Positions 1-47,159 of a stretch of DNA of 48,126 nt are shown piece by piece; positions within the stretch are counted from its first letter, which is position 1, and the number at the start of each line of letters is the position of its first letter. This DNA is from an uncultured Candidatus Finniella sp. GTDB taxonomy: Bacteria; Pseudomonadota; Alphaproteobacteria; Paracaedibacterales; VGCI01. Under the pieces are notes generated by a model. It was not told where the DNA came from and ran no database searches. It saw nothing but the letters and a program-made list of their open reading frames with translations. The position numbers and the translations under genes are program-made. Location of the stretch: assembly GCA_964424515.1 (NCBI GenBank), contig CAYRJJ010000003.1:1-48126 (forward strand), given 5' to 3'.

Positions 1-36
1 CGCTACACAATCAACTCTTACGCCTTCACTCCATAC

Positions 37-3898: not shown

Positions 3899-4419
3899 AG
3901 GATCATCCCTAAAATTATTGACTACATACTAATTTAGCTTAATTATTTTATTTATTATAAACTATTCAAAAACCTTTATTTAAAATGATAAAAGGCGCTT
4001 TTGTTAGCAAATATTTACAAATCCTTGGCAATAGTAGTACCTGCAATAGAAAATAGCAAGTTTGAATGTCTATGGGCAATATTTGGTTATTTATTTAGAG
4101 ACCGTCCTCCTTGGGAGGACGACCTGTAAATTTCGACTCACTTTAAGTTATTTTATCAACTCTAATATTCCAAATAAAATCTGAGGAAAACTTACCGTCT
4201 TTATTGCTTCTTACATATTTAAACTTCATCGCCAGAATTTCCACCACCGCCTGCGGTTAGCCTTCGGCTTGTAAACCTCATCCATCTTTTCGGAGAGGTC
4301 TTCAATTTTTCCCCTCAAGCCCAAAAACCAGTTTTTTATGAATTCCTTATCGGGATACTCCTCCATAAGTTCAGCGAAAGTTTCCATGTGGACAGTTTGG
4401 CCGTGCTCGTTTTCATAAC

Positions 4420-6079
<1,660 letters not shown>

Positions 6080-6252
6080 TTGCTGGATCCTTCCTGAAAG
6101 CTATTAAATAGACGTAAAGAAATCATTTCTCATTCATAGATGCGGCAAAGCCTCTCCCCATCTCTTTGGAGTACTATAACATAATTTCTCTTGAAGATAT
6201 GCCTGGTTTATTTTCTTAGCTTAAAGCATCAATATTGATGCCCGCCTTATGA

Positions 6253-6540
6253 TTATGATGGTCTTTTGCCATTGACGGCTTCCTTCAACGCTCTGCCTGC
6301 GGTGAAAGCGGGAAAAAATTTATCCGGAATGGAGATGGCCTCCCCTGTGCGGGGATTACGCCCTGTCCGGGCACTTCTTTTAAAAAGTCTGAAAGAGCCG
6401 AAGCCCACAAGAGTGACGGATTCGCCGTTTTCAAGACTCTCCTGAATGACCTCGAATATGGCATCAACGGCTTTTGACGCATTTGCTTTTGGCATTGCCG
6501 CTTGTTCACAAACTGCATTGACTAGAATCTTCCTGTTCAT
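6253..6540 (-). CDS. hup: HU/IHF-family DNA-binding protein
   Basis: 95 aa. MNRKILVNAV...SVTLVGFGSFRLFKRSARTGRNPRTGEAISIP is the classic HU beta-arm motif. Confidence 0.9.
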   Translation of the reverse strand: MNRKILVNAVCEQAAMPKANASKAVDAIFEVIQESLENGESVTLVGFGSFRLFKRSARTGRNPRTGEAISIPDKFFPAFTAGRALKEAVNGKRPS

Positions 6541-6730
6541 AAAATTTTCCTTTCATCATTATGAGATGATTTTCTGGACCACACATCTTACTGGCATGTT
6601 AGACGCCTGTATTCAGTTTCAGTAGATTTATCCAGACTTCCCCCCATTTGTCGAGGCATTTTTATTTCTCTTCTCCTTTTGGCCGTCATCTTTTAAGTCC
6701 ATGCTTTTGACAAATTTTATACTCTGGCGC

Positions 6731-8944
6731 TCAAAGCTGCGGGTGAGCAGGCCCGGGCATGGAACTTACCCTTGCGCGCAGCCTTTCCTCCAGCATAGTC
6801 CACCGGGTTGTCGCCTTGTTGTTTCTGACGGCTATAGCTACGGCTTTTTTCTGGCCTACGAGTATAACGAGCTTTTTCCCTCTGGTCAGAGCAGTATAAA
6901 GCAGGTTTTTTTGAAGCATGGCATAATGCTGCGTCATAAGAGGAATGATAACGGCAGGGTATTCGGAACCCTGAGATTTATGAATGGTCATGGCATAGCT
7001 GAGGACAATCTCATCCAGCTCATTCACGTCATAGGAAACCTCCCTCCCCTCAAAGACAATGGTCATCTCGCCTTCTTCCCGGTCAATACGCTGGATAATG
7101 CCGATATCACCGTTATAGACTTCTTTTTGATAGTTGTTCTGGATTTGCATCACCTTGTCCCTTACGCTGAAGCTCCACCCGAACTTTTGCAGGCTATGAT
7201 CGCCCGGCGGGTTAAGAGCCTTTTGCAATTCCAGGTTGAGGGTTCTTGCTCCCGCCATTCCCCGCGCCATGGGAGAAAGGACCTGTATATCAGCGAGCGG
7301 ATCGAGACCGAGCTTACCGGGCAACCGGCGGGTTGCAAGATCAACGACAAGGCTGAGAGCTTCTTGCGGCTCGTTTGCTTCCAGAAAGAAGAAATCCGAC
7401 TTTGGACCATACCCCTGCAATTGAGGCAGGGCACCCCGGTTAATGGTATGAGCCACAGCAACAATGGCGCTGCTTGCGGCTTGACGAAAGATCTCTGTCA
7501 AATGAATACACGGCAACGCTTTTGAAGCAATGATGTCGCCAAGCGCTTGTCCGGGCCCAACGGATGGGAGCTGATCGGCGTCTCCTACCAGCAAAAGAGC
7601 GCTTCTGGAAGGAAGCGCCTTAAGAAGGGCATAGAAAAGGGGAACATCAAGCATGGAGGCTTCATCTATCACAACAAGGTCACAGATCACTGGATTCTGT
7701 TCGTTCCTGGCAAATCCCCCTGTCATCGGGTTTGTCTCCAGCAACCGGTGGATGGTTCGGGCTTCCAGTCCTGTCGTCTCCTCAAGCCGCTTTGCTGCTC
7801 TGCCGGTGGGCGCCGTCAGCAGGATATGGATATGTTTGGCTTTGAGGATTTTAAGAAGAGACCGTACAAGCGTCGTCTTTCCGACGCCCGGGCCCCCGGT
7901 AATGACCATGACTTTAGATTCCAGGGCTTTCTTCAACGCCTGTTTCTGGGTCATGGACAGGACAATCGCATGTTTTTGTTCAACCCAACTGGTTGCCTTG
8001 CCGGCATCAATAGATGGCCAAGGAAGAGGGCCCTGACTCAACGCCTGCAACCGCTCTGCAATACCCTTTTCAGATGCGTACAGGCTTCCGGAAAATATGC
8101 ACTCCGTTCTCTTGATTGCATCCTTAATGACTGTTCCCTGTTCAAGCTCCAGGGCAAGAGCTTGAGAAACAAGAGGGACTTCAACATCCAGCAGCTCCTG
8201 GCACGAGTTGAGGAGCGTTGGAACCGGCAAACCGCAATGGCCTTCATCCGTGGCTTTGCCAAGGGCGTAGGAAATCCCTGCCCGTACCCGCTGAAGGGAG
8301 GTCTTGTCCATGCCCAGGCTCATAGAGATTTTATCAGCGCTCACAAAACCAATTCCACGAATGTCCTGAGCAAGGCGGTAAGGGTTCTGGCGAATGAGAT
8401 CTATGGCATTGTCGCCATAAGTTTTGTATATCCTGACGGCACGCGCGGTGCTGATGCCATGGCTGTGCAAGAACAGCATGATATCGCGAATGGCTTTTTG
8501 AGCGGCCCAGCCTGATATAATTTTCTCCAGCCGTCCGGTTCCTATGCCAGCAATGGTTTTAAGGCGTTCCGGCTCGTCTTCAATAATGGTAAAGACCCCT
8601 TCCCCAAAGGCTTTGACGAGCCTTGAGGCATAAACAGGGCCAATGCCCCTGATCATTCCGGACCCAAGATATTTTTCTATTCCTTCAAGGGTTGTAGGGG
8701 GCATCGCTCTTAAGCTCAAGGCTTTAAATTGCTGCCCATATTGGCGGTCCTGGATCCAGAACCCGCCCGCCTCAATCCACTCGCCTGCCGTGACAACAGC
8801 ACAGACGCCTACAATAACGGCCAGATCCTTATGGCCCTTTACTTTTACCTTGAGGACGCAAAATCCTGTTTCCGGGTTATGAAACGTCACCCGTTCAATA
8901 AGACCCGAAAGGGTTTCCTGAGGTTCCTGGTGTTTAAGATTCAA
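6731..8944 (-). CDS. recD2: RecD2-like SF1 DNA helicase
   Basis: Typical RecD2 N-terminus LSGLIERVTFHNPETGFCVLKV, an HhH region, Walker A VITGGPGVGKTT, TAPTGRAAKRL, VIDEASMLD, and C-terminal YAMTIHKSQGSEY. The start is TTG at 8944, directly after the stop of the WGR gene. Confidence 0.9.
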   Translation of the reverse strand: MNLKHQEPQETLSGLIERVTFHNPETGFCVLKVKVKGHKDLAVIVGVCAVVTAGEWIEAGGFWIQDRQYGQQFKALSLRAMPPTTLEGIEKYLGSGMIRGIGPVYASRLVKAFGEGVFTIIEDEPERLKTIAGIGTGRLEKIISGWAAQKAIRDIMLFLHSHGISTARAVRIYKTYGDNAIDLIRQNPYRLAQDIRGIGFVSADKISMSLGMDKTSLQRVRAGISYALGKATDEGHCGLPVPTLLNSCQELLDVEVPLVSQALALELEQGTVIKDAIKRTECIFSGSLYASEKGIAERLQALSQGPLPWPSIDAGKATSWVEQKHAIVLSMTQKQALKKALESKVMVITGGPGVGKTTLVRSLLKILKAKHIHILLTAPTGRAAKRLEETTGLEARTIHRLLETNPMTGGFARNEQNPVICDLVVIDEASMLDVPLFYALLKALPSRSALLLVGDADQLPSVGPGQALGDIIASKALPCIHLTEIFRQAASSAIVAVAHTINRGALPQLQGYGPKSDFFFLEANEPQEALSLVVDLATRRLPGKLGLDPLADIQVLSPMARGMAGARTLNLELQKALNPPGDHSLQKFGWSFSVRDKVMQIQNNYQKEVYNGDIGIIQRIDREEGEMTIVFEGREVSYDVNELDEIVLSYAMTIHKSQGSEYPAVIIPLMTQHYAMLQKNLLYTALTRGKKLVILVGQKKAVAIAVRNNKATTRWTMLEERLRARVSSMPGPAHPQL

Positions 8945-8947
8945 TCA

Positions 8948-9298
8948 TTATCCTTTGAACTCCTTGCGCTCTTTCACCCATGAAAAGTGTTCCATAGTCT
9001 GTTTGTTGATCAGAGCCAGCATATCATCGTGTCCATCCACTGAAAGGATTTGGTAAGCACACCCGATTCTTTTTGGCGCTGTCAAGCGACGCTTAAGTTT
9101 TTGATCCATGAAGGCAAAAGCTTCTGTTTGGGTCTCAAAATGTTTCGCCTTGATGGTTCCGCCTCTTCCATAGCGTCCAAAAGCAATAAGGACGCGCCAG
9201 TATCCAAAGAGGTCTGTCCCCAACCGCACCTGGTATTCCCGGTCATGCCCCAGCTCAAGGCTGCAGGCTCTCAGCCTGATGATTAACAGATTATCCAT
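8948..9298 (-). CDS. WGR-domain protein
   Basis: REYQVRLGTDLFGYWRVLIAFGRYGRGGTIKAKHFETQTEAFAFMDQKLKRRL fits the WGR pattern (W..GR.G..G). It is tightly coupled to recD2. Confidence 0.75.
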   Translation of the reverse strand: MDNLLIIRLRACSLELGHDREYQVRLGTDLFGYWRVLIAFGRYGRGGTIKAKHFETQTEAFAFMDQKLKRRLTAPKRIGCAYQILSVDGHDDMLALINKQTMEHFSWVKERKEFKG

Positions 9299-9546
9299 GA
9301 CTTGAGGGCAAGCATAGGAAAAGGACCGGACCTGCGTCCAGCAGGCTCACTCATCAACTTTTGCGCCGGGGAAATACGGTTTAATGTCATCATCGACTTC
9401 CATATCAATCAGCATTTTTATCCATTTTTTCTCCTCCTGTGCTCTCTTCTTCTTTACGCTGCATACCTTTTATCTGTTTCCTTTACGCCCTGCAAAATGA
9501 CCTCATTTGTAAAGCTCCCCTTCTTCATAGAGGCCCTGCGGCGTCC

Positions 9547-10092
9547 TCATTCCTCCTCTCTGTCATGGGTGAGAATATGGGAATGGCTGATCCGGGCAGT
9601 ATAGGCCAGAGCGAGGGCCGAGACCAGAAATGTTAAATGGATGAGGATTTGCCACATGATGTGTTCTGTTTGCATGTGCTTGATGTTGATAAAAGTTTTG
9701 AGCAGGTGAATGGAAGAAATGCCTATAAGGGACATGGAAACTTTAATTTTGATGGTATTGGGATTGACCTGATTGAGCCACTCGGGAAGGTCAGCGTGGT
9801 TCTCAATACCGAGCCTTATTTTGGAAACAAAGGTTTCATAGCCGCCAATAATGACCATGACCAGCAAATTGGAAATCATGACCACATCAATCAAGTCGAG
9901 GACGACCAGCATGATATGGTTTTCATCGAGTGACTTAACTTCGCTGGCCAGGTTCCAGAGTTCTGCAAGGAACAGATAGACGTAGACGAACTGGGCGACG
10001 ATCAGGCCAAAATAGAGAGGAGATTGAAGCCAGCGGCTTGAGAAGATAATGGCTGAAAGATATTTTTCCGCTACGGATAGTTTCTTATTCAT
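9547..10092 (-). CDS. yqhA: YqhA/UPF0114-family inner-membrane protein
   Basis: SSRWLQSPLYFGLIVAQFVY plus several TM helices, and its length (181 aa) is typical of the family. Confidence 0.8.
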   Translation of the reverse strand: MNKKLSVAEKYLSAIIFSSRWLQSPLYFGLIVAQFVYVYLFLAELWNLASEVKSLDENHIMLVVLDLIDVVMISNLLVMVIIGGYETFVSKIRLGIENHADLPEWLNQVNPNTIKIKVSMSLIGISSIHLLKTFINIKHMQTEHIMWQILIHLTFLVSALALAYTARISHSHILTHDREEE

Positions 10093-10320
10093 TTTATGGC
10101 GCTTAAGCCCTTCTATTAACCTTTTTGTTAACCCATTTTTAACCTGTCCGCGTCTATAATATATTTAGATTCATTGCAGGAATTGTAAAGGCCTCTGTGA
10201 CGCGCATTGTGTGTCCTTGCAATGAATCACCTAAAAAATCTCCTCTATTTTTTATAACCCCCCCAACATTTTTTCGTAGGCTCGTTTTATTTTTCCTCTA
10301 CCCTTTTTCCTGGTAAAAAA

Positions 10321-35289: not shown

Positions 35290-35744
35290 GGACGGTCTCC
35301 TTCCTCAATGTCTGAAATGGCCGCCTGTAAATTTCCCATGGCATGGAGCAGATAGTTCTCCCGGAATTTTAAAGAACCGGCTCTGTCCAGACGCAACGAC
35401 AAGATGTAAGACAGGGCTGTTCCCAAGTGCGCTGACAGCTTCCAGTCCTCAATCACATCGTCAATCTCCACATCAGGCGGCTGATTCAAGGGCACAGCGC
35501 ACATTGCCAGATCCCGCCTTAAGCTTTGCAACTCCCGGTCCAGATACCAGGCGGATTTTCTGAGGTCGTTCAGGGCCGATGTTTTACGGCCTGCCCGGGA
35601 TATATACTTCACGACGCATCCCAGATGATGACACAGACCAAATTCCTCAATCACCCGGATCGGCTCAATAGACCGGCCTGCAATGTAATGGGCTGGATAA
35701 AAAATAGCCTTGTTGTCCAAAGGCGCCTTCAGTCCTTCGCTCAT
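35286..35744 (-). CDS. DUF3310-like protein, translationally coupled to traL
   Basis: PAHYIAGRSIEPIRVIEEFGL..HLGCVVKYISRAGRKTSALNDLRKSAWYLDREL matches the DUF3310 pattern (HY..IEPI.VI..., KYI.RAG.K, DL.KA.YL), with a weaker second copy downstream. ATGA overlaps at both ends. Confidence 0.6.
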   Translation of the reverse strand: MSEGLKAPLDNKAIFYPAHYIAGRSIEPIRVIEEFGLCHHLGCVVKYISRAGRKTSALNDLRKSAWYLDRELQSLRRDLAMCAVPLNQPPDVEIDDVIEDWKLSAHLGTALSYILSLRLDRAGSLKFRENYLLHAMGNLQAAISDIEEGDRP

Positions 35745-36397
35745 CCCCTGTCTCCTTTTCCTGGAACCTTCTCTTTCCATGCCCGAATCAACGCAGACCT
35801 CACAGGCAAGACCCGCAGCGCCCTGTTCAACTCTTTGCTCGTCTCACTCTCCTCACAATGAGCGCTTTGTTCTCCCGCTAATATCGCCTGGCCCTTCCGG
35901 ATGGTCTCGTTATCCCGCTTCCTGGCCGATATCCGGCAGGGAGGAAGAGGCCAGCGGGTTTCAAACACGAGCCACCCCTGGTGCGCGCAATACTCAAGAC
36001 AAAAGGCCTGACGCATTTGCGCCACATCAACTTGACGATCCATCACAATCTCCTGTTTTGACCCGTAAATCCCCCGGTAAATCTCCAGAAGCCCGCATCC
36101 CTCCTCCAGAGCCTTCGTCCTTGCCCGGGATACATATTCCGGTTTGATTCCGGAACAGGACCGCTTCAGATGTTTGGGCGCATAATGCGTAAAAGACCAG
36201 TAGTCCTGACCGTATGCGGGACTATTCTCCACACGCTTGCGGTTTTCTACCCCTTCAATAAACCGCAGCAAGACCCCGTAATCATCAAACGCCCCGATCT
36301 TCCTGCTGTCTTTCCCGAACACCCTGATCACTCCGTCCTCCTGTTCCTTAAAAAAACAAAAAATGCATAACTCATATAATTTTGAACTTTTGAGCAT
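35741..36397 (-). CDS. Hypothetical protein, small-protein family copy A
   Basis: It shares VIRVFGKDSRKIGAFDDYGVLLRFIEG and AFCLEYCAHQGWLVFE with the ORFs at 36775-37269, 40015-40479 and 39648-40031. Confidence 0.6.
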   Translation of the reverse strand: MLKSSKLYELCIFCFFKEQEDGVIRVFGKDSRKIGAFDDYGVLLRFIEGVENRKRVENSPAYGQDYWSFTHYAPKHLKRSCSGIKPEYVSRARTKALEEGCGLLEIYRGIYGSKQEIVMDRQVDVAQMRQAFCLEYCAHQGWLVFETRWPLPPCRISARKRDNETIRKGQAILAGEQSAHCEESETSKELNRALRVLPVRSALIRAWKEKVPGKGDRG

Positions 36398-36774
36398 TTT
36401 TATAATTCATTTATTAACAAAAAACCAACTTTTTTTACAATTTACTCATGAAAAAATGTTTTTAACTTATTAAAAAAATATTATTTATTTTACGGTAAAA
36501 TTTTTGCATTAGTCATCTTTCCATGAAAGTCTTTCTTCTCCTGTATTTTTATATTAACAGAAACCATTGATGTGCGCTCAACCGCCATATTTATCTCCTG
36601 AAATGCGCTTTCATTTTTTATGGATGGACAATTTATAAAAATTTATAGATTGCCCATAATATTTTTTTTGTTCATATATTTTTTGCTTTCTCTTTTTTTA
36701 TATTTATTTCCCAAACGCTTCCTGAAATCAGACAGGCCCATCCTTTAAATCTGAAAGACGGAATCAAGGATTTT

Positions 36775-37269
36775 TCAATCTCCAACCCAATATTGCGAGA
36801 CGGGATCAGATAACCCACAGGCGTGTGTCTCATCCGCATAAGTCCCGGCAGTCATGCCGGATTCTTCACCACGCCCTCCGGTGAGAGATTCCAGAATCAC
36901 AAACCCGTGCGACGAGGCATAGTCGTAACACCACCCTCGCGCCAGGCTTTCCACATCCAGATCCGGTGTCACCGCATATTGACGAGCTGTGAGAATATCC
37001 CCGCAAAACACATCGATCAGATCCAGCTCTTCCTCAAATGCCTGCCGTTCCGTTGATGACAGACGGTCTTGCATCTTCTCCAGGACAGCGGCAAGACGCT
37101 TGTAAGGATGCCACACAAACCCCCACTTGCCGTCTTCTTCTCCTCTCCGCTTATACCCGGCATGGTAAAAAGAAAGCGTTTGCTCCAGGCGACAGAAATA
37201 ATCGCACAAAGCTTCAAAAGTCCCGAAACAACGACGAGACGGAATCACAGGACCTTGCATCCAGATCAT
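36775..37269 (-). CDS. Hypothetical protein, small-protein family copy B
   Basis: MIWMQGPVIPSRRCFGTFEALCDYF...FEEELDLIDVF...GWCYDYASSHGFVILE. ATGA overlap with the upstream rep-like gene. Confidence 0.65.
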   Translation of the reverse strand: MIWMQGPVIPSRRCFGTFEALCDYFCRLEQTLSFYHAGYKRRGEEDGKWGFVWHPYKRLAAVLEKMQDRLSSTERQAFEEELDLIDVFCGDILTARQYAVTPDLDVESLARGWCYDYASSHGFVILESLTGGRGEESGMTAGTYADETHACGLSDPVSQYWVGD

Positions 37270-38774
37270 TGTCCGCCTCCCCCTGCTAAAGCTGGTCTGC
37301 CCGCTATTCTGTCAAGGTTCATTCCGAAAAAAGGCGACCCATACGGTTTAGGGGATTCAACAAAGTGCCCTCTCCTCAAACTTTCTAAACCAGGTTGGCC
37401 GGTAGGTTCTGTAGTAGCTGCATCATCTCTTATCCAGCGTTCAAACCGTAAATCCCCTTCTTCCTGGACGATGTGAATACAGGAAATCCCCGCGGCAGAT
37501 AAAAACGCCGGCGTTAAACGTCCCGCCAGCCATTTGGCCTGGTAACGGCTCGCCGGTCTCAAAAACAGGGCGTTTAGCTCTTCCAAAAACGCCTCACAAC
37601 CGTTCAGCAAGTCCTGATACGCTTCTGATCCCCACGTCTTCAAACACCGCAAGCGGAAGTCCTGCAGGGCCACAGGCTCGCCGGAGGTTCGGATGCGCGC
37701 TTCAAGGTTTTTTGTCTCCTCCTGGTCCCTGATCAGTTCCTGCATCAGACGGGAGGGCGCACGCTCTGGATTCCGGTCTCCGATTCCGTACTGGCCCTCG
37801 AGGATTTTGCGGATGCTCTCGAACTTTAACGCCCATTCCAGGGTCGCTTTGAAAGAGGACTTGTTCTCTCCCATCAAAAACTTGCTGGAAGCGACCTTTT
37901 GACAAAAGTCTTTCCATTTATCCAGTCGCTGGTCGAATTTGTCCTTGAAGGCCTGTTTGAGAAAACCCGTCAGTTTGCCCGTCAGCTCAATTTGAGCCTT
38001 GCCTCCCTCGACAACGGCTGTCCATAATTCAATCATTTTTTGAACAATCTCATTGCCTGCATGTGATTTATCGTCAGATAAATCTTTTGGGGTATTCTTT
38101 GCTTCTTTAGATGATCGGCATTCCTTCCCGTTACGCAGCGGCTTGAGAGATGCTTCTTTCCCGTTACCGGAAGCTGAATCGGGATGAGCGCAGGAGTCCG
38201 AGTTGACCGGCGTGGCTCTGGTAGAAGAACGAGCGACAGAACCTTCCTGAGGGGCAGGATGGTTCTTAAAGCCGTCGGGGTGGTCAGGACAGGAAAGACT
38301 CGGATCCTGATCCGGATCGCGAGACTCGGCTTCGCTTTCCCGCCCGTCAGGGTTGCGCATAAAAAACATCTGGTTCACATGCCGGTCATAGAAGCTGGCG
38401 TACCGCTTGCCCTGGAACTTGTCGGGCGCCCGTTCATAAGCCGTGCGGCTCACATACCGCACCCCAATCCTGTCAAAAGATTTGGAAAACGACTTGCGGT
38501 CGCATCCCATCTCTTCCGTCCAGCTGTCTCCCGGTTTATAGAGACGGTGGCAACATGGCTCAACGAACTTGTAAAATCCGCCCGGCTTTTTAGAAAACCA
38601 GTATTCCAGAGCGCTGGCGATCAGTGTTGCCCGCATACATCCCGTTTGTTCATGGATGCGCCGGTCAAACTTGATAAAATACTTGCTGGCCCTGGATTTG
38701 TGGAGAGAGGAAACGCCAGTCCGTGTTGAGCGGCGCCTTGGCTGGAGCAAGGAGTGAAGGTGGACATGGGTCAT
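37266..38774 (-). CDS. Putative replication-initiation-like DNA-binding protein, paralog B
   Basis: A paralog of 41535-43346, sharing the N-terminal block FYKF(V/I)EP..HRLYK..DSWTE and the central block FLKQAFKDKF...KW..(F/Y)CQ..ASS(K/R)FLMGE.KSSF(K/R)ATL(E/D)WALKFE.I.KILEG.YGIGDRNP. The central block resembles DnaD/phage-replication C-terminal motifs. The function is inferred. Confidence 0.5.
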   Translation of the reverse strand: MTHVHLHSLLQPRRRSTRTGVSSLHKSRASKYFIKFDRRIHEQTGCMRATLIASALEYWFSKKPGGFYKFVEPCCHRLYKPGDSWTEEMGCDRKSFSKSFDRIGVRYVSRTAYERAPDKFQGKRYASFYDRHVNQMFFMRNPDGRESEAESRDPDQDPSLSCPDHPDGFKNHPAPQEGSVARSSTRATPVNSDSCAHPDSASGNGKEASLKPLRNGKECRSSKEAKNTPKDLSDDKSHAGNEIVQKMIELWTAVVEGGKAQIELTGKLTGFLKQAFKDKFDQRLDKWKDFCQKVASSKFLMGENKSSFKATLEWALKFESIRKILEGQYGIGDRNPERAPSRLMQELIRDQEETKNLEARIRTSGEPVALQDFRLRCLKTWGSEAYQDLLNGCEAFLEELNALFLRPASRYQAKWLAGRLTPAFLSAAGISCIHIVQEEGDLRFERWIRDDAATTEPTGQPGLESLRRGHFVESPKPYGSPFFGMNLDRIAGRPALAGGGGQ

Positions 38775-38991
38775 TTTGTTCGTATCCTTTCCTGTTAAAG
38801 AAGCAGGACAAGGGTTGCAAAACCGGCGCCTTTTATGACATGATCATCCCGGATGAGACGCTCCACGAATGCTGCGGTCGGTCTCTATAGCTCAAGTCGA
38901 GCGTCTCATCCACCAAACGCGAGGATGCGACAAAGCATGCCCGCAAGCGCTTTGAAAAAGACGCATCTCTTGCCTGACGGGTCATCAATTC

Positions 38992-39019
38992 AAAAAAAGC
39001 CGGAGTTTGATCCCTGGCC
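38992..39019 (-). terminator. Intrinsic-terminator-like hairpin + U7 after mini-ORF 1
   Basis: The minus strand reads GCCAGGGA-TCAAAC-TCCGGC followed by TTTTTTT, starting about 5 nt after the mini-ORF stop. Confidence 0.45.
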
Positions 39020-39023
39020 TATT

Positions 39024-39173
39024 TTAAGCGTTGATGGCCCGTAAACCTGACAAATTGTTAAATGAAATGAGATTTTCCAAATTCTTACGTGCGTCAATCC
39101 ATCTTTTATTGAAAAATTGTTCCCGCCGCTCTTGGATTCGTCGCTCGTCTTGCGCTATAGTGGGTTTAGCCAT
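39024..39173 (-). CDS. Mini-ORF 1 (49 aa, MAKPTIAQDERRIQERREQFFNKRW...)
   Basis: Perfect SD AGGAGG 7 nt before ATG 39173. The N-terminus and the leader are conserved with the mini-ORF at 40656-40784. Confidence 0.45.
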   Translation of the reverse strand: MAKPTIAQDERRIQERREQFFNKRWIDARKNLENLISFNNLSGLRAINA

Positions 39174-39647
39174 GAATAACCTCCTGTGTTAAGGTTGTGT
39201 GGTCAGCAAAATCTAAGCGGTTCGATGCGCTTTGTTTCTGCCGGTGGGATCTGGACAGCCTTGGCTGTTCCTGGATTCCACTGTTTCATTGAGGAAGAAA
39301 ACAGGCCAGTATTTACAACAGCTTTATTTTAATCCTTACCTCCCAATATAACCTGAAATTGCATAACCCACAAACAAAAAGATTGATTTTTTATAAAAAT
39401 TATTATAAATGATAGATTTTTTAGCCTCCGGCTTTGGTGCCCATGAGAGGCGCCTGTTTTTTAATCACGTCGTTAACCCGTTGTTAACCCTGGTAAGCCC
39501 CCCCTCATCCACAGATATATCCCCAAAAATTGTGGATAAGATCTTGCGCCCCCCAACCAGATGGCGCATACCAGCTCTGTTTTTTAAGGAAAATAGCCAA
39601 TCAGCGTGCCAGAAAAAGACAAGGTATGCTAGAGTGAAGTCATGATT

Positions 39648-40031
39648 CTACATGATGACAAAGGAGTTTTTATTACAGGCATGTTCAAGAGATTGCTTGT
39701 ACCGTCAACGCGTAACCAAGCGCCATTCTCTCCTCGGGTTCTGGACATCAAAGTCAGGCGCCTCCAGGCAACCGTCAAATATCTCTATGAGGTCAAGCTC
39801 GCCCTCATAAGCTTCCCGTTCACGTTGGCTAAATCCGATATCTTTCAGGCGTTCATGAAGCCTTTTCAGCTTTTTGTAAGGTCAATAGATAAAGTCCCGC
39901 CGACCATCAGGTCCGGGTCCTGCAGCAGGTAACGGCTTCAGATGTTCTACGCGCCGGAAGTGGTCACACACCTCCTCAAAGGTTTTGTATGTTCCAATGG
40001 ACTTATTTTTGGAATTAAACACCCAGATCAT
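39648..40031 (-). pseudogene. Decayed member of the small-protein family (copy C) with two in-frame TGA codons
   Basis: MIWVFNSKNKSIGTYKTFEEVCDHF...DFIY*PYKKLKRLHE...YEGELDLIEIF...REWRLVTR*. It is collinear with copy B. The stops are at 39882-39884 and 39705-39707. Confidence 0.6.
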
Positions 40032-40479
40032 CAGAACCCCCTGTCCCGGGCGATTCGGGTACGCTTTCATTGTTGAAGGTTTCTGTGATTGAATACTCGT
40101 GCGTCTTGCAGTAAGACTCACACCAGTTTCGCTGTAATTGCTGGATATTGACGTCGTCTGTCACCGGAATTTGCAAAGGGCGAGCCGGGTCACCCTGATA
40201 GAGTTCAATCAGGTCAAGCTCCTGGTCAAAAGCTTCTTTTTCTATTTGCGTGAGAGGAGGTTCTTTCATGCAAGAGTAGACAGTTCTGAGTTGTGCATGC
40301 TTATAATAGACAAACCGCCAATTAGACTCCTCCCCGTCCAGCACGCTGTCAAACGGGTAGGTACGGTAAATCAAAAACCGCAGCTTGCGGATTCTGGAGT
40401 GATGGATATAGTCAATTAGGCTTCCATAAGTTTCAAAAGAACCGATTCGAGACAAATTCTTGTCTAATAGATGTAACAT
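40015..40479 (-). CDS. Hypothetical protein, small-protein family copy D
   Basis: I moved the start to ATG 40479 (MLHLLDKNLSRIGSFETYGSLIDYI), which aligns with the starts of the paralogs. FDQELDLIELY and NWCESYCKTHEYSITE are conserved. Confidence 0.6.
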   Translation of the reverse strand: MLHLLDKNLSRIGSFETYGSLIDYIHHSRIRKLRFLIYRTYPFDSVLDGEESNWRFVYYKHAQLRTVYSCMKEPPLTQIEKEAFDQELDLIELYQGDPARPLQIPVTDDVNIQQLQRNWCESYCKTHEYSITETFNNESVPESPGTGGSDDLGV

Positions 40480-40627
40480 TTTGATTGAGTTCCTTTCACA
40501 AAGTGGCGAAAGGGCATGTTCCTGGAGCAACGACAAGGAGAGTTCTGGCTAGAATAAAGGCAATATGGCTTCTCCCATTGAAAGCAACAAGCAAAAGCCA
40601 TAAAGCAGCCTCACTAGCCAGCCCTGT

Positions 40628-40657
40628 AAAAAAGGCCAGGAAGCAAGCCCCGGCCTT
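40628..40657 (-). terminator. Intrinsic-terminator-like hairpin + U-run after mini-ORF 2
   Basis: The minus strand reads AAGGCCGGG-GCTTGCTT-CCTGGCCTT running into TTTTTT. The stem overlaps the TAA of the mini-ORF. Confidence 0.45.
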
Positions 40658-40784
40658 AGTTTATGTATGGTTTTGCGTTTGCGCCCAACAATGCAATAAC
40701 GGATGACCCATTAAAAAAATGGTGCCTGTCGTAAACATATGCTTGGAAAAGGTATTTAACTTGGGATATCGTGGCTTTAGCCAT
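40656..40784 (-). CDS. Mini-ORF 2 (42 aa, MAKATISQVKYLFQAYVYDRHHFFNG...)
   Basis: SD AGGAG before ATG 40784. It shares MAK.TI.Q and (Q/H)FFN with mini-ORF 1, and the conserved leader element CTGACCACA sits 25 nt upstream in both. Confidence 0.4.
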   Translation of the reverse strand: MAKATISQVKYLFQAYVYDRHHFFNGSSVIALLGANAKPYIN

Positions 40785-41070
40785 GATCAACTCCTATATC
40801 TAGTTGTTTGTGGTCAGAGGCGCATGAGTTCTGGCAGAACTTTTGCGTCTCGCTTAGTTGAGGAAGAAAAAAAGGTCGGGGTTTAAGAGACTTATTTTTT
40901 ATCCTCCCCTTCACCGTAGAGCAAAGCGCCAGATTAGGCAAGCGCAAAATCAATTTTTTAAATAAAACTAGAGGAATCCTATAATGTTTAAGAAAAAAAC
41001 TTATTAAAAACTCTATGGATTCCTGCAAAAAGAGCGTTAAACTACTATCACTTGACTGGAAAGTTGTGCA

Positions 41071-41523
41071 TTAAAGGCTTTGAAGGATTTTGCGAACGGC
41101 TTCCGCTTCTTCAATGCTCACCGTGCCGCAATTTTCTCCTTTTAGGTTATAACGGGCCGCACCTTCCTTAAGGCAATCCAGATACCCGTAACTTTCCTTG
41201 TAACGAGACAAGGCAGCCTTAATCACTAAATCCTGCGGGTAACTCTTCTTGATGGCATTGTTTTTATAGTCCGCCTTTAAGTCCCGCAAGAGTAGATGAT
41301 CAAGAGGAATATAATCGTCTGCGGCAAACAGGTGGGGGAAAGTCTCCTCAAGCCATTGTTCCGTCAACGCCAGTTTTTGTTCAAAAGTCAAGGGCTTGGA
41401 TTTGGCAGCCTTGCCCGCTTTCTTTGGCGAAACTTTTGGAGCGGGAAGTTTGCGGTTTCTCTGCTCCCGTTTCAGGAACTCTTGCCTTTGCGCCGCCCGC
41501 TCCGCTTCAAATCGATCCGTCAT
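41071..41523 (-). CDS. FinO/ProQ-domain RNA-binding protein
   Basis: LTEQWLEETFPHLF....PLDHLLLRDL...VIKAALSRYKESYGYLDCLKEGAARYNLKGENCGTVSIEEAE follows the ProQ/FinO domain pattern (L...FP..F, PL, AL..Y..S..YL, R.dL.G...G.V). I moved the start to ATG 41523 (GAGGA SD). Confidence 0.8.
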   Translation of the reverse strand: MTDRFEAERAAQRQEFLKREQRNRKLPAPKVSPKKAGKAAKSKPLTFEQKLALTEQWLEETFPHLFAADDYIPLDHLLLRDLKADYKNNAIKKSYPQDLVIKAALSRYKESYGYLDCLKEGAARYNLKGENCGTVSIEEAEAVRKILQSL

Positions 41524-41534
41524 ACCGTTCCTCT

Positions 41535-43346
41535 TCACCCCAAAGTTTGACAAGAGTTTCGCATTGCAAACATTCCCTGGGAGCGGTCACAAAAAGCCGA
41601 CACCAGAGATTGAATGCCTTGTTCCAAAGACATTTTTTGCTTAACATTCTCTGATTTTTGGGGGAAGTTTTCAACAAAAAGATCGACCGTATCACCTTCT
41701 TTCTGGCGGATAACGAGTCGGTTAACTCCTTTCCAGAGGCTTGCTGCAACTTGAAATATCTCCTGGCTTAAGCGCAAGCGGCACCACTCGACCGCAAGAG
41801 GATCTTTAAACGTCACAACAATTTTGCCGTCTTTGCCCATTGGGTCAACTTCGATAGCGCCAAGCCAACCTGGAAACTGGTGGGGAGGCAAAATTTGCCT
41901 TAGTTTCTCCCGCAATATTTGCGTTTCTGCGCTCACAGGCTCTACAGCTTTTGGTTGTTCACCTTCAAAAGCCTCCCCCTCTTCGGGTGACCTCCCTGTA
42001 AAAACCTTCATATCTTCAGTTATCTCAGGCAAAGGCAGGACGATAGGCGCCGCCGCATTTAAAGCGCCAGGAGCTTTAACGGCGACAGTTTTATGTTCAG
42101 GCGCCGGCGGCAGCTCCTCCCTTCTTTGGCTCTCGCCAAACCACTTGTCAAAAACAAGCTCGCCCTCTTTCTGGACAATGTTCACTCGCTTAAAAGGACT
42201 GTCGTCAAGTAACGCCTGTACCCACCAGGATGAAATTAATTTTGCCGTATATCTTGAGCTTGGACGAAGGATGAGCGTAGTTTCGTCTGACACCTCAATA
42301 ACGCAGGTTTTAAAGCACTCCCGGTAGTTACTCGCACCAAGTTTATTCAACCATTTGAGGCGAAATGCTTTCACGGACTGCGCTTCATCCGTTTCTTGTT
42401 GAATCTCTTCCGCTTCACGAGCTATATCTATTTTTGAATTGTTGAAGAATACCCCAGCCGCAGATACCGCCGATAAAGGATTCCTGTCCCCAATGCCGTA
42501 ATTTCCCTCAAGGATTTTCTGGATGATCTCAAATTTTAATGCCCAATCCAGGGTCGCGCGGAAGGATGATTTGATTTCTCCCATCAGGAATCGGCTGGAC
42601 GCAATGTCCTGACAATATTTTTTCCACTTTTCCAGGCAGTTATTAAACTTGTCTTTGAACGCCTGCTTTAAAAAAGCTATCCTTTTGCTGGTTAATTCAA
42701 TTTGGCCTTTTCCTTCTTCGACAAGGGCTGTCCAAAATTCAATCATTTTTTTAACAATCTCATCGCTTGCATGAGAGTTATCTTTAGATAACTCTTTTGA
42801 GGTATTCTTTGTTTCAATATATGAACGAACATTTTGCTCGGTGCCTACTGAACGAGAGGCTAAAGGTAAAGCCGTGCTTGAAGGGGAGGTTGAAGCCATT
42901 AAACAGGCGTTTTGTGGATGGTTGCTTCTGGAACAATCTGAAGGATTTGGTTCAGCTTGAACTTTGGCAAGAAACGCTTCAACAGCTTCGTGATTTCTGA
43001 TGAAGAACATTCTGTTTGTTAGACGGTCATAGTAGCTGGCGTATAACTTTCCCTCAAATTTGTCTTTTGATTGTTCAAAGCTCCAACGGGAGACATGTTT
43101 TTTGCCAATTAATTTGAAAGCCCTCCAAAATGAGGTACGGTGACAATCTAAAAGCTCTGTCCAACTGTCATCTTTTTTGTAAAGTCGATGTGAGTTAGGC
43201 TCAATAAATTTATAAAATCCGTCAGGCTGCCGACTAGAATAAAATTCTAGCCTATCGAAGATTAAAGTTGCGCGGTCACAGCCGATAATTCGTTTAATGC
43301 GTTGGTCATGCTTGATAAAATATGCTCGTTTCATGAGTAGCTCCAT
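41535..43346 (-). CDS. Putative replication-initiation-like DNA-binding protein, paralog A
   Basis: See paralog B. It also has two DnaA-N-like modules (AFRLKWLNKLGASNYRECF...LILRPSSRYTAKLISSWW and LREKLRQILPPHQFPGWLGAIEV...VVTFKDPLAVEWCRLRL). The function is inferred. Confidence 0.5.
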   Translation of the reverse strand: MELLMKRAYFIKHDQRIKRIIGCDRATLIFDRLEFYSSRQPDGFYKFIEPNSHRLYKKDDSWTELLDCHRTSFWRAFKLIGKKHVSRWSFEQSKDKFEGKLYASYYDRLTNRMFFIRNHEAVEAFLAKVQAEPNPSDCSRSNHPQNACLMASTSPSSTALPLASRSVGTEQNVRSYIETKNTSKELSKDNSHASDEIVKKMIEFWTALVEEGKGQIELTSKRIAFLKQAFKDKFNNCLEKWKKYCQDIASSRFLMGEIKSSFRATLDWALKFEIIQKILEGNYGIGDRNPLSAVSAAGVFFNNSKIDIAREAEEIQQETDEAQSVKAFRLKWLNKLGASNYRECFKTCVIEVSDETTLILRPSSRYTAKLISSWWVQALLDDSPFKRVNIVQKEGELVFDKWFGESQRREELPPAPEHKTVAVKAPGALNAAAPIVLPLPEITEDMKVFTGRSPEEGEAFEGEQPKAVEPVSAETQILREKLRQILPPHQFPGWLGAIEVDPMGKDGKIVVTFKDPLAVEWCRLRLSQEIFQVAASLWKGVNRLVIRQKEGDTVDLFVENFPQKSENVKQKMSLEQGIQSLVSAFCDRSQGMFAMRNSCQTLG

Positions 43347-43845
43347 TAATAAAATGTTCGCTACTAGGACAAAAAACTTGACAATAATCTATAGGCTGTG
43401 TAATATAAAAATACACAAACAGGATTAGTCATTAAATATTAAGTGCATCTGGGCAAGAAGACTAATATTTATATTTATGATCCTAGCGATGTTTTATAGA
43501 AAGGGGGGGAGTTTTCTCCCCCTTTCTATTTTAATTTTCGGAATAAATTGACTCGGTCATCTTTTGGCTCCATAAAATGAAATTCTTAATAGCGTATATT
43601 CATTCCAATTTTTACATTAGAGTAACTAATCCTTAACATGTCTTATTTTTCTATTGCAACCTTTTTTTTGCATTTTGTAAAAAATGATTGCATGTTGAAA
43701 AAATAGCATTTAACGTTAACTCAATGTATGGGGGTTTTTTTGATAGCTGTTTATTATGTTCGATGAACCCAATGAAAATTATTTTTCTATCGTACTTGAA
43801 TTTTTTAAATAGGATTGCCTGTGAACATATTGCAAAGGATTTTGT

Positions 43846-44835
43846 ATGAAATTTGACCGTATACAACTAACTCAACGAATAATGGCGGAACTTTCTAGAG
43901 AGCACCCATCAACGATAAATAGATTTATTGTAAGTAATGGGATAAAGCATATTGATACAGGAACTCAAAGAAATCTAAAATATTCTATTATAGAATCAAG
44001 AAAAGTTTTAAAGAAGTTTGTTGCAGACAAGCTGATACCAGAAAAAAGAATATGGGCATTTTATAATTTCAAGGGCGGAACCGGGAAAACCAGCCTTTGT
44101 TTCCAAGTTTCATCATTCTTGGCATTTTGTGGATATAATGTTTTGGTTGTTGATACTGATCCCCAAGGAAATTTAACTTCAGCATTAGGCTTTGATATTA
44201 CTGATAATTTTATGACTCTTTATGATGTAGTGATAAAAAACATTTCTCCTAGAGAAGCCATTAAGGAGGTGTTTCCTGGTTATAGTTGCATTCCCTCAAA
44301 TTTGTCTTGTTCAAGATTTGATATGGAATTATCTATGAAAGGAAGGCGAGAAGAACAATTTAAAATTAGGCTGGATTCAATAAGAAAAGATTATGATTTT
44401 ATTATCTTTGATACCAATCCAAACATAAGTCACATTATAAGAAATATTACAATTTTTTCTGATTTAATATGTGTTCCATGTGAAACCCAGCCATATAGTA
44501 TTAGCGCATTAAATGTTTTATTCGATGATATGTCCTCTTTTTTTGAAATGATGGATACTATTCCTCCACAAATGGTCGTCATACCAAATAAATACGAAGA
44601 TCGGTATGGGACAACAGCGGAAGCTATGACTGTTCTAAGGAAAGATTTTGGAAAATACCTAGTTCCAGATTTTGCTGTCAGGAAAGCAGAAGACTTTAAT
44701 ATTTCTGCAAAAGAAAGATTACCACTACCATGTATAGCAAGAAAAAATTCGATAGCACTTCAGGATATTATTGAACTTTCCCACTATTTATTAGAAAGTG
44801 TAGTTGCTAAACCCAATAATATGCAAGTCGCATAA
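43846..44835 (+). CDS. parA: ParA-family partition ATPase
   Basis: Deviant Walker A FYNFKGGTGKTS, VVDTDPQGN, and an N-terminal HTH-like extension. Confidence 0.9.
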   Translation: MKFDRIQLTQRIMAELSREHPSTINRFIVSNGIKHIDTGTQRNLKYSIIESRKVLKKFVADKLIPEKRIWAFYNFKGGTGKTSLCFQVSSFLAFCGYNVLVVDTDPQGNLTSALGFDITDNFMTLYDVVIKNISPREAIKEVFPGYSCIPSNLSCSRFDMELSMKGRREEQFKIRLDSIRKDYDFIIFDTNPNISHIIRNITIFSDLICVPCETQPYSISALNVLFDDMSSFFEMMDTIPPQMVVIPNKYEDRYGTTAEAMTVLRKDFGKYLVPDFAVRKAEDFNISAKERLPLPCIARKNSIALQDIIELSHYLLESVVAKPNNMQVA

Positions 44836-46016: not shown

Positions 46017-47159
46017 ATGACTACAGAAAATAAGCACGAAGCTCAACAACTCCTGCAGAGTCTCCACTCTTCTAATCAGGAAGAAGGGTATAGCGATCCC
46101 GCGCATACTTCTCAAAAAGAAGGATCGAAGTCAAAAAGCATCAGAATGACGAATCCCTGTATTGACAGCGTTTTTCAATACGGTTTCCTGGAACCTTTTA
46201 TTCTTAGCGACTTTCTTAATGCTGTCCTCAATTTTACAGGAGAAAATGCTATTGAAGAGATCATCTATCTGCCCCGTGATATGGGTTCTTCAGATCCCAT
46301 GTCTTCTTTTGCCTACCATTTTACAGTTGACATTCGTTGTCGGACGAAGAATAACCACCATTTTCTGATAGAAATGCAAAATGATTTTCGGGATGACTAC
46401 CATCTTAAATCCCTTGTAGAACATTCCCGTATGCTAAGCCGTCTGGATACCGATCAGACGTTGGAGGAGCAGACGCTTCGTGTTGACAAGAATAAGGGGG
46501 ATCTCAACAAGTTCTGGAAAAATGTTGAAGGCCTCTACACAATTGTGATTACGAACAAGGCGTTTCCTGCCGGTAAAATGAAAAGCAGTTATCCTGACGA
46601 GACAATGATGGAGCCTTTTCTGATCAACAATTATGAACTGCGCCATACTGAACAACTGGAACGTCGTTATGGAGATATACCTAACCAGATTGTCCTTTTA
46701 ATGCTGGATAATTTGAATAAGGAAGCTGAAGAATTATCCTCTCCTCTTGAGAGGTGGGCTTACCTGTTTAAGGATCCATCTCTCAAAAGTGGTGTAAGGA
46801 AGATCTCTGAAACAAAGGATATTTCGGATCCTGACCTTGTAGCTGGAGGGAACAGATCCATCAGGGCCTTTATTGATCGAGTCAATATAGAACATCTTCC
46901 CCAGGAGGTTCGGGAACGGTATATTCGGTCCCTTGTTTACTTTAATGACACCATCCTCGATATCAGGGAGAAAGGAAAAGCAGAAGGAAAAGTAGAGGGA
47001 AAAGCAGAAGGAAAAGTAGAGGGAAAAGCAGAAGAGAAAATAGAAGTAGCGAAGCGGATGATCAGGAGGAGTCAACCTTTTGAAGTAATATGTGAAGTGG
47101 CGGAATTAACATTGGAAGTTGTGAAAGAGTTGGCAGATGAGATTACGCGCGGTACATAG
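46017..47159 (+). CDS. Rpn/YhgA-like PD-(D/E)XK nuclease family protein, copy 2
   Basis: DSVFQYGF...FTVDIRCRTKNNHHFLIEMQNDF is the PDDEXK_2-type core. It has a 3 x 8-aa repeat (GKAEGKVE) at the same relative position as in copy 1, and a helical C-terminal tail. Confidence 0.75.
   Translation: MTTENKHEAQQLLQSLHSSNQEEGYSDPAHTSQKEGSKSKSIRMTNPCIDSVFQYGFLEPFILSDFLNAVLNFTGENAIEEIIYLPRDMGSSDPMSSFAYHFTVDIRCRTKNNHHFLIEMQNDFRDDYHLKSLVEHSRMLSRLDTDQTLEEQTLRVDKNKGDLNKFWKNVEGLYTIVITNKAFPAGKMKSSYPDETMMEPFLINNYELRHTEQLERRYGDIPNQIVLLMLDNLNKEAEELSSPLERWAYLFKDPSLKSGVRKISETKDISDPDLVAGGNRSIRAFIDRVNIEHLPQEVRERYIRSLVYFNDTILDIREKGKAEGKVEGKAEGKVEGKAEEKIEVAKRMIRRSQPFEVICEVAELTLEVVKELADEITRGT
46974..47045. repeat. 3 x 24-bp in-frame tandem repeat inside Rpn-like copy 2
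   Basis: ggaaaagcagaaggaaaagtagag occurs twice exactly, plus a diverged third unit. Confidence 0.9.

Follow-up and report, generated by a model that had tools for sequence, protein, structure and literature searches.

Among the described systems in which a plasmid-encoded antisense RNA acts on a leader, those closest to the locus considered here are FinP/traJ/FinO, Inc/repY/FopA of IncI1 plasmids, the antisense RNA/repR/PcnR system of IncI2 plasmids and CopA/tap of IncFII plasmids; the systems built on FinO, FopA and PcnR have been reviewed together (PMC9977716). In IncI2 plasmids, the antisense promoter lies within the leader open reading frame (ORF), and the FinO-family protein PcnR takes part in the control (PMC8053102). 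FinO/ProQ proteins also occur on alphaproteobacterial plasmids, where a 2023 review names no RNA partner for them. The present locus belongs to a stretch of 48,126 nucleotides (nt) from an uncultured Candidatus Finniella sp. (contig CAYRJJ010000003.1, positions 1 to 48,126; hereafter the window), which is an F-type conjugative element. Its minus strand carries two related units, unit 1 and unit 2, each composed of a leader, a short ORF and an intrinsic terminator, and a gene for a FinO/ProQ-domain protein precedes unit 2. A sequence-only reading made earlier had proposed that these units are RNA-based control modules or attenuators. The conserved, discrete modules linked to FinO/ProQ have held, an RNA circuit is still the best reading and an attenuator fits the anatomy, but the strand assigned to the regulatory RNA has had to be reversed.

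It is likely that each unit is a convergent sense/antisense module, a FinOP-like switch wired through a leader ORF, which heads an operon running into the F-type transfer genes. A sense promoter would produce an mRNA with a 5' untranslated region (UTR) of about 120 nt, a Shine-Dalgarno (SD) sequence and a leader ORF of 32-57 codons whose stop codon abuts an intrinsic terminator, while an antisense promoter within the first 14 leader codons would drive an oppositely directed RNA of 70-80 nt with two stem-loops. With an anti-SD loop and a stem over the start codon and the CUGACCACA block, this RNA would pair with the sense leader and block leader translation, and the FinO-domain protein encoded upstream probably stabilises it and accelerates the pairing. 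When the leader is translated, the ribosome at the stop codon would cover the 5' arm of the terminator and permit read-through into the D-family or Rep gene and the transfer genes; when leader translation is blocked, the terminator would form and the D/Rep-tra operon would be off. Unit 2 is positioned ahead of a D-family gene and unit 1 ahead of a second Rep paralogue. Sequence comparison points to two conserved promoters, a covarying structure on the antisense strand, an open but unconserved leader ORF, the adjacency of stop codon and terminator, and linkage to FinO, from which we infer that the antisense RNA is actually made with the predicted ends and bound by the FinO-like protein, and that termination depends on translation of the leader.

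Like the FinOP system, the locus has a predicted cis-antisense RNA of about 80 nt from the leader of the first regulatory gene upstream of F-type traE/K/B, and the same conjugative element has a gene for a FinO-domain protein whose N-terminus bears a basic extension. The predicted RNA resembles FinP in its two stem-loops, short spacer and 3' tail, in covering the ribosome-binding site and start codon of its target, in an apical region that varies between lineages, and in a 3' hairpin whose closing G-C pair has a flanking A-G mismatch and a G-initiated tail. It differs from FinP in having no sequence or covariance-model (CM) similarity to it (Rfam) and in a tail that is not a clean U-run. Further differences from FinOP concern the target, which is a short unconserved leader ORF ending at a terminator and not traJ; the downstream D family, which resembles TraJ neither in sequence nor in predicted fold; the finO-like gene, which lies immediately upstream, after rep, whereas that of FinOP lies at the distal end of tra; the presence of two diverged tandem copies on one element; and the nearest named relatives, which are endosymbionts of the Alphaproteobacteria/Holosporales instead of Enterobacteriaceae.

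With the copy-number control systems of IncI1 (Inc/repY-repZ/FopA), IncI2 (antisense RNA/repR-repA/PcnR) and IncFII (CopA/tap), the locus shares an antisense RNA complementary to a leader, and with IncI2 it additionally shares an antisense promoter inside the leader ORF. Both IncI systems also resemble it in a plasmid-encoded FinO-family protein, in the translation of a short leader ORF as the controlled step (proposed here) and in the position of one copy, unit 1, before a Rep-family gene. In these copy-number systems, however, the leader ORF overlaps the rep start codon and acts by translational coupling, with a pseudoknot in IncI1, whereas here an intrinsic terminator closes the leader ORF and 130-250 nt separate it from the next gene, which is usually not rep. 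Since the predicted RNA falls outside Rfam FinP, the target is not traJ and there is no overlap-type coupling, the locus would therefore be best placed as a FinOP/Inc-related system with a new RNA family.

The features on which the sequence-only reading had relied were re-examined on the minus strand, and both units were found there with every feature it had listed. The SD sequence is AGGAG at 40791-40795 in unit 2 and AGGAGG at 39180-39185 in unit 1. The block CTGACCACA occurs at 40809-40817 and 39198-39206, respectively, and is followed in both by exactly 24 nt and then ATG, which bears out its fixed distance from the start codon; TTTTCTTCCTCAA, the GGAGG-containing A-rich block and the AAAAAAT(C/T)(A/G)AT tract are also common to both. 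Pairwise alignment confirms the additional 42 nt claimed for unit 1. The mini-ORFs comprise 42 codons plus stop in unit 2 (40784..40656) and 49 codons plus stop in unit 1 (39173..39024), each followed directly by the hairpin and U-run that had been described. As for the suggested paralogy, blastn aligns the cores of the two units at E=1.6e-6, and a hidden Markov model built solely from the units of other contigs recovers unit 2 at E=1e-122, and unit 1 as colinear pieces with E-values of 5.5e-9 and 7.4e-6. Judged by these matches, the two units are diverged paralogues and not chance look-alikes.

Relatives were gathered through Rep homologues, D-family homologues and two DNA patterns, after which nhmmer was applied, giving 17 distinct units in metagenomes and Holosporales metagenome-assembled genomes (MAGs), 14 of them retrieved without the pattern that requires the antisense promoter and three with it. 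Most of these sequences are metagenome contigs, and they amount to few independent sequences (CM effective N of about 3). Two MAGs contribute three related units, two from Ca. Finniella inopinata (Holosporales) and one from an unclassified alphaproteobacterium. The sequence-only reading had made its proposal depend on conservation of the leaders in related elements, and the 17 units do recur in a common gene order: parA/B in divergent orientation to Rep, then FinO/ProQ, sometimes one small gene, the unit, one to three D-family genes, DUF3310 and traE/K/B. This order is present in the window and in loci L008, L012, L020, L082, L083, L085, L094, L098 and L102. A second arrangement, in which the unit is followed by a RepB-type gene, the D family, DUF3310 and traE, is seen for unit 1 of the window, L009 and L014. 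A search of GTDB genomes with the two-Rep alignment returned distant relatives of the Rep N-terminus only, without units, and exact 17-mer scans gave mostly chance matches and one genuine unit, L067. No additional members emerged when the distant Rep loci L015-L056 and two Ca. Paracaedimonas plasmids (L104, L105) were searched with the CM, and the RNA family therefore seems to be restricted to one subclade.

The first 54 nt of the mini-ORF, compared without gaps, contain the invariant columns ATGG.TA, A13, ATA16-18 and TTCCAAG37-43, between which the columns vary freely. Read on the opposite strand, these columns give a -35 hexamer TTGGAA (TTGGAT in unit 1), exactly 18 nt and a -10 hexamer TAT(A/C)(G/T/C)T. 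In unit 2, this predicted antisense promoter occupies 40743..40772 on the plus strand, over codons 5-14 of the mini-ORF (TTGGAA 40743-40748, TATCGT 40767-40772), and in unit 1 it occupies 39132..39161 (TTGGAT 39132-39137, TATAGT 39156-39161), both with an 18-nt spacer. The pattern TTGGAA/TTGGAT-18-TATnnT is present in all 14 units retrieved without the pattern search, with a spacer that varies in sequence, and the positions kept (TTG; T1, A2, T3 and T6) are the most important ones in sigma-70 promoters. The conserved Ile is always encoded by ATA, Phe by TTC and Gln by CAA, codons whose element-wide shares are 19%, 35% and 48%; joint use of these single codons is expected in 3% of cases per independent lineage, and nearby synonymous sites do vary. 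The first stem of the antisense RNA begins 7-8 nt past the -10 hexamer, where the transcript start is expected. MAK(P/A)TI(A/S)Q had been taken as a shared beginning of two peptides; it coincides with the -10/+1 region of the antisense promoter, its hexamer codons are frozen, and by sequence comparison the conserved MAKxTIxQ…FQ motif is an embedded promoter and not a peptide motif.

The predicted sense promoter of unit 2 (40913..40967, minus strand) consists of an A/T-rich, UP-like tract, a -35 hexamer TTGCCT at 40936-40941, a 17-nt spacer and a -10 hexamer TACGGT at 40913-40918, with the start expected near 40906. That of unit 1 (39345..39373, minus strand) reads TTGTGG-17-TATATT and aligns with the promoter of the other units; of the 16 units extending far enough upstream, 15 keep TTGnnT-17-TAnnnT at the corresponding place in the alignment. 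The AT-rich, promoter-like stretch with the AAAAAAT(C/T)(A/G)AT motif, which had been pointed out earlier, is accounted for by this conserved promoter and the A/T tract preceding it. In the same tract upstream of unit 2, a separate promoter-like site, TTTAAA-17-TATAAT (10/12), lies at 40957-40985 on the plus strand and points into the 3' end of the finO-like gene.

For the RNA itself, an alignment that begins shortly before the GC-rich stem and reaches the start codon was folded in both orientations. On the antisense strand, RNAalifold finds two stem-loops with 26 pairs at -36.1 kcal/mol for 13 sequences and -34.6 for 16, against 10 pairs and -10.7 on the sense strand. Standard pairs occupy 96.1% of the antisense cells, compensatory changes occur at 15 pairs, none of 500 shuffles reaches this degree of pairing, and controls slid along the alignment are 32-50% paired. 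The same helices are only 74% paired on the sense strand, because G.U pairs, which fill 91 of the 407 antisense cells, become A.C there. Single-sequence minimum free energy (MFE) is lower on the antisense strand in all 16 units, by 18 kcal/mol on average; for the 80-nt RNA of unit 2 it is -31.3 kcal/mol (z=-4.5) versus -19.7 (z=-2.3) on the sense strand, and the 122-nt region of unit 1 reaches -44.3 kcal/mol (z=-3.7). Covariance model R1, built from 16 sequences, scores 56-87 bits on the antisense strand versus 14-17 on the sense strand, with 87 bits for unit 2. Unit 1 was not among its training sequences, yet the model recovers it at 39169-39236 on the plus strand with 27.6 bits (E=2e-4 over all loci, 2e-7 locally). 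The covariation analysis that the sequence-only reading had recommended for homologous leaders thus yields strong covariation, on the antisense strand. Its suggestion to look for antisense transcripts across the leaders proved the key lead, in that a promoter and a covarying structure are predicted there; its placement of the regulatory RNA on the sense strand is not supported.

The predicted antisense RNA of unit 2 (40780..40859, plus strand, about 80 nt) comprises a first stem-loop, SL-I', at 40780-40814, a spacer at 40815-40816, a second stem-loop, SL-II', at 40817-40851 and the tail GCUUAGUU at 40852-40859. In SL-I', the complement of the start-codon region, GCCAUGAU, pairs with GUUGUUUGUGG, the complement of the CUGACCACA block; its loop exposes the anti-SD UCCU, and the 5' end of the RNA overlaps the AUG. 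CTGACCACA corresponds to the 3' arm of this first stem. Across the family the spacer measures 2-3 nt, and SL-II' has a GC-rich stem of 14 bp with a conserved base, GAGGCGCA/UGCGUCUC, in which A-U pairs are swapped for U-A in six sequences, whereas its apical stem and loop are lineage-specific. The tail follows GCUUA(A/G)UU, of which only GCUU is conserved. This anatomy would thus explain each of the ordered blocks singled out by the sequence-only reading. In unit 1, the predicted RNA (39169..39240, plus strand, about 70 nt) has an SL-I' with the anti-SD CCUCCU, a short hairpin AAGCG..CGCUU and the tail UGUUUCUG; a terminator-like plus-strand site at 39215-39232, inside this RNA, was flagged by the promoter and terminator scan. 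The 42-nt insert of unit 1 forms a further hairpin at 39242-39283, which may lie beyond the end of the antisense RNA. Because the tops of SL-II' are variable and the second hairpin of unit 1 is very different, the comparison suggests that units 1 and 2 do not cross-react. Rfam gave no match at its gathering threshold; on 38700-41200, FinP (RF00107) is absent even at E<=10, and the sole match is the chance-level RF00043 (21 bits, E=1.4, sense strand). By these searches the RNA appears to be a new family outside Rfam FinP.

The alternative that survives best, though we consider it unlikely, is that function resides in the sense transcripts, about 280-350 nt long from promoter to terminator, which would act as small RNAs or dual-function RNAs with the terminator hairpins as FinO ligands. 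The sense promoter and sense terminator are conserved, the A-rich 5' flanks of the terminators pair with the U-tail as in ProQ-type ligands, and the sense RNA is also a target in the favoured model, where FinO could bind it as it binds traJ mRNA. Yet the leader folds far worse on the sense strand in 16 of 16 units, with the 74% pairing given above, the frozen promoter hexamers inside the ORF are left unexplained, and no trans target is evident. The hairpins themselves also bear on this question. The FinO-specific ligands FinP and RepX share an A-G mismatch below the closing pair and an unpaired tail (GAUUUU in FinP), whereas ProQ ligands have paired A-U flanks or pyrimidine mismatches (Mamonska et al., PMC12001967). 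In 16 of 16 units, the closing G-C pair of SL-II' has the same two neighbours, A on the 5' side and G on the 3' side, and the tail opens with a G; the sense terminators are of the ProQ-like type, with A-rich 5' flanks pairing with the U-tail. The hairpin most similar to known FinO ligands is therefore that of the antisense RNA, whereas the sequence-only reading had pointed to the sense terminators.

The FinO/ProQ-domain gene named as lying upstream of unit 2 is confirmed at 41071..41523 on the minus strand. It starts 11 nt past the RepA stop codon and encodes, from its ATG, 150 aa with a basic N-terminal extension; the product matches PF04352 at E=5e-13 (49.3 bits against a curated cut-off of 27). 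NCBIfam ProQ/FinO matches are weak, while sequence matches in the PDB comprise the ProQ N-terminal domain 5nb9 (E=9e-6), Lpp1663, RocC and FinO (relatives 5nb9, 6s10, 7rgu and 1dvo). Among the loci with upstream context, a FinO/ProQ gene is physically linked to the unit in 10 distinct cases.

On the minus strand of the window, the Rep-like gene 43346..41535 (RepA) is followed by the FinO/ProQ-domain gene 41523..41071, unit 2, the 154-aa D-family gene 40479..40015, a degenerate D copy, unit 1, the second Rep paralogue 38774..37266, two D-family paralogues, a DUF3310 gene and traE, K, B, C, U, trbC, traN, F, H, G and D; parAB and a MobA/TraI relaxase lie on the plus strand. The RepB-type gene 3' of unit 1 (37266..38774, minus strand) is 46% identical to RepA (41535-43346), and the D-family paralogues, DUF3310 and the F-type transfer genes come after it. 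The D-family gene 40015..40479 (minus strand), the first gene 3' of unit 2, has paralogues at 36775-37269 and 35741-36397 and 20 homologues, none of them named; the family has no Pfam or NCBIfam match, and an AF2 model (pLDDT 81) has no PDB fold match at E<=0.001.

This gene order also bears on a second alternative, in which the antisense RNA governs Rep synthesis through the leader ORF, as in CopA/Inc-type copy-number control, and not conjugation. The antisense mechanism is the same as in the favoured model, and the output alone differs. Unit 1 and the units of L009 and L014 do stand directly upstream of a Rep-family gene, and the architecture recalls R1 tap/CopA and the IncI2 repR/antisense RNA/PcnR system. 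In most loci, however, the unit lies 3' of the parAB-linked Rep and 5' of the D-family and tra genes, and the leader ORF ends 130-250 nt before the next start codon (176 nt from stop codon to ATG in unit 2, 249 nt in unit 1) with the terminator in between, so that overlap-type translational coupling is absent. We regard replication control as an improbable output of the circuit.

The Rep-like paralogues 37266-38774 and 41535-43346 (minus strand) and the homologues P0009-P0050 form one family, many members of which match DnaA_N (PF11638) at the C-terminus; it comprises two types, one beside parAB and a shorter one heading the tra region. The closest annotated Rep relatives belong to plasmids of Ca. 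Paracaedimonas, Ca. Bealeia, Ca. Paracaedibacter and Ca. Bandiella, which are endosymbionts of amoebae and ciliates, and blastn of window positions 36001-44000 against PLSDB plasmids returned zero matches. The degenerate fourth D-family copy, at 39629-40121 (minus strand) between the D gene of unit 2 and unit 1, has an N-terminal 79-aa ORF that aligns with the D family, while the remainder (EREAYEGELDLIEIF) is readable only across a stop or frameshift.

The mini-ORF itself keeps its SD and AUG in all 17 units and remains open for 32-57 codons up to the terminator, where the other two frames contain 30 and 42 stops; its indels are multiples of three, and the length changes in the closest subfamily are multiples of 12 nt. 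These features, together with its annotation by gene callers in L083 and L102, would suit a third alternative, namely that the mini-ORFs encode functional small proteins with MAKxTIxQ..FQ as a protein motif. Beyond codon 14, however, pooled pN/pS is 1.33 and variable sites are distributed as 17/20/13 over the three codon positions; the length ranges over 32-57 aa, the C-termini are unrelated across subfamilies, and a 1-nt indel shifts the end of the ORF between the Finniella copies L088 and L093. The conserved residues are each written with a single codon and coincide with the promoter hexamers, and there is no Pfam or NCBIfam match. On the grounds of pN/pS, codon freezing and peptide composition, a functional small protein was rejected as very improbable. 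A hok/sok-like type I toxin-antitoxin module, in which a toxic peptide would be repressed by the cis-antisense RNA, has the small ORF, the antisense RNA over 5' UTR and SD and the plasmid location in its favour, but it was rejected on the same three grounds and is scarcely credible, for the peptides are polar or charged and not hydrophobic (that of unit 1 highly charged), their sequence is unconstrained, and the unit is fixed upstream of the D/Rep-tra operon and never free-standing. Because it is open to the terminator and yet not conserved as a peptide, the mini-ORF, judged from its sequence, behaves as a leader ORF, with no protein-level constraint beyond the promoter overlap.

Under the favoured model of a FinOP-like switch acting through this leader ORF, a ribosome at its end would permit read-through. 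The sense 5' UTR of unit 2 (40785..40906, minus strand, about 122 nt) contains a hairpin, SL1, the target region complementary to the antisense RNA, and the SD AGGAG. SL1 would pair GAGGA at 40902-40906 with UCCUC at 40860-40864 at the sense 5' end; it is given no weight, because its consensus energy is about -3 kcal/mol (-2.99) and it shows little covariation. The leader ORFs of unit 2 (40656..40784) and unit 1 (39024..39173) run up to intrinsic terminators on the same strand. That of unit 2 (40628..40655) has a GGCCGGGG/CCUGGCC stem directly after the UAA stop and a U6 run, with -16.3 kcal/mol in a 46-nt context, and that of unit 1 (38992..39019) has a hairpin 4 nt past the stop codon and then U7, with -12.2 kcal/mol in the same context length. 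In the ten units of subfamily (i), the UAA abuts the terminator stem and is partly paired in it, and four others have a gap of 4-5 nt, so that 14 of the 16 units reaching the terminator have their stop codon at 0-5 nt from the stem; in L093 the ORF runs through the hairpin. Covariation of the terminator on the MAFFT alignment is modest and the alignment partly faulty, and the per-sequence folds are the better evidence.

A comparable arrangement is found in the E. coli pyrBI leader and in rph-pyrE, where the leader ORF ends at or crosses an intrinsic terminator and a closely following ribosome prevents termination. The stop codons of the 14 units and the read-through ORF of L093 match it, with L088 as the exception. 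The input to pyrBI and pyrE is the rate of RNA polymerase movement (UTP level), whereas the input proposed here is an antisense RNA, and the coupling is predicted from geometry. In pT181, pIP501 and pAMbeta1, for which no FinO-family protein is known, an antisense RNA refolds the nascent RNA directly, without a ribosome or leader ORF; what these plasmids share with the present proposal is that formation of an intrinsic terminator ahead of the controlled gene depends on an antisense RNA.

Downstream of the terminator of unit 2, 'Segment 3' (40618..40625, minus strand; AGGGCUGG) nearly repeats the 5' arm of the terminator and can pair with the 3' arm when the 5' arm is masked; with the stop codon and 9 nt masked, as they would be by a ribosome, the alternative 2:3 hairpin is predicted in 7 of the 10 units of subfamily (i). 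The conserved downstream leader of unit 2 (40480..40617, minus strand) ends in the hairpin CCCUUUCGCC/GUGAAAGG at 40492-40514, which sequesters the SD of the D gene and carries a compensatory change from CGCC..GGUG to CUC..GAG in L085 and L098. The 215-nt leader between the terminator of unit 1 and the RepB-type start codon is not homologous to it and contains a 16-nt inverted repeat at 38851-38866 and 38896-38911 (94% complementary, 29-nt spacer). The unit model also gives a weak nhmmer match (E of about 1e-5 to 5e-4) at 38886-39033 on the plus strand, across the terminator and downstream leader of unit 1, which could be a hairpin artefact or an inverted fragment.

Several observations weigh against the proposed switch. 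Both promoters are weak relative to the E. coli sigma-70 consensus, at 8/12 and 7/12 (7/12 for the sense promoter of unit 2), and the promoter and terminator scan reported none of the four proposed promoters and neither sense terminator. Three of the 17 units are biased for the antisense promoter, because the search pattern that found them required it. SL-II' is followed by a poor U-tract (GCUUAAUU; GCUUCUGG in L088) and not by a clean U-run, which makes it uncertain where the antisense RNA would end and whether this hairpin would act as a terminator. In L088, the terminator core lies about 11 nt past the stop codon, outside the ribosome footprint. Candidate hexamers for a second promoter between the terminator and the D gene are inconsistently conserved; if that promoter is real, the attenuator matters less. 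The linkage to FinO has exceptions, with a DUF1016_N gene in its place in L078 and no FinO gene between the Rep fragment and the unit in L009, and the two Finniella copies sit in chromosomal-looking DNA with no FinO within about 7 kb. Finally, the controlled output is read from the gene order alone, because the D family has no recognisable function.

The surroundings of these two copies, from the Ca. Finniella inopinata MAG (L088 1-800 and L093 1-650), comprise D-family copies beside type VI secretion system VasE/DotU, a Kup transporter, an APH kinase and AbiEii, that is, secretion and housekeeping-type genes, and no Rep within the same distance; in both loci, a shared palindromic repeat (about 190 nt) has been inserted and separates the terminator from the D gene. 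In two other loci, the same insertion sequence (IS), with a 382-aa DDE_Tnp_1 transposase and the terminal sequence CAGTGCAATCGCCATGG, lies inside the unit at the ACCACAACAACC segment (L012 11962-11985, L096 1455-1490), where it interrupts the predicted antisense RNA and the 5' UTR. An IS3 insertion in finO of F reportedly derepresses transfer, which these insertions recall. Just upstream of the unit in L009 (256-570), L012 (11178-11492) and L094 (3878-4192), the opposite strand carries a conserved ORF of 104 aa, which seems to encode a membrane protein and is absent from the window. Elsewhere in the window, the accessory region 1-10100 contains a Sel1-repeat protein gene (1304-3898), a resolvase, a RecD2-like helicase and a DDE transposase fragment, and two PD-(D/E)XK 'transposase' family genes lie at 5069-6079 and 46017-47159. 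This mix of Sel1 repeats, transposases, resolvase and helicase is typical for elements of intracellular bacteria.

The locus provides a covariation-supported candidate RNA partner for an alphaproteobacterial plasmid FinO/ProQ protein. A more far-reaching proposal, which we offer tentatively as a possibility and not as the expected outcome, is that an undescribed family of FinO-partnered cis-antisense RNAs acting through a translation-gated terminator would be the master switch for F-type conjugation and the second Rep gene on plasmids of Holosporales-like endosymbionts, that two diverged, probably non-cross-reacting copies in series would form a two-step lock, and that the RNA would be the first partner of an alphaproteobacterial plasmid FinO-family protein. 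The wiring suggested here, in which an antisense RNA gates a terminator via a leader ORF, is distinct and would, if true, join FinOP-type control with pyr-type attenuation. For annotation, the lesson is that an antisense promoter lying within an ORF can pass for a conserved 'mini-protein' motif. If the proposed mechanism is true, FinOP-like fertility control would extend beyond the F-like plasmids of enterobacteria to the mobile elements of protist endosymbionts.

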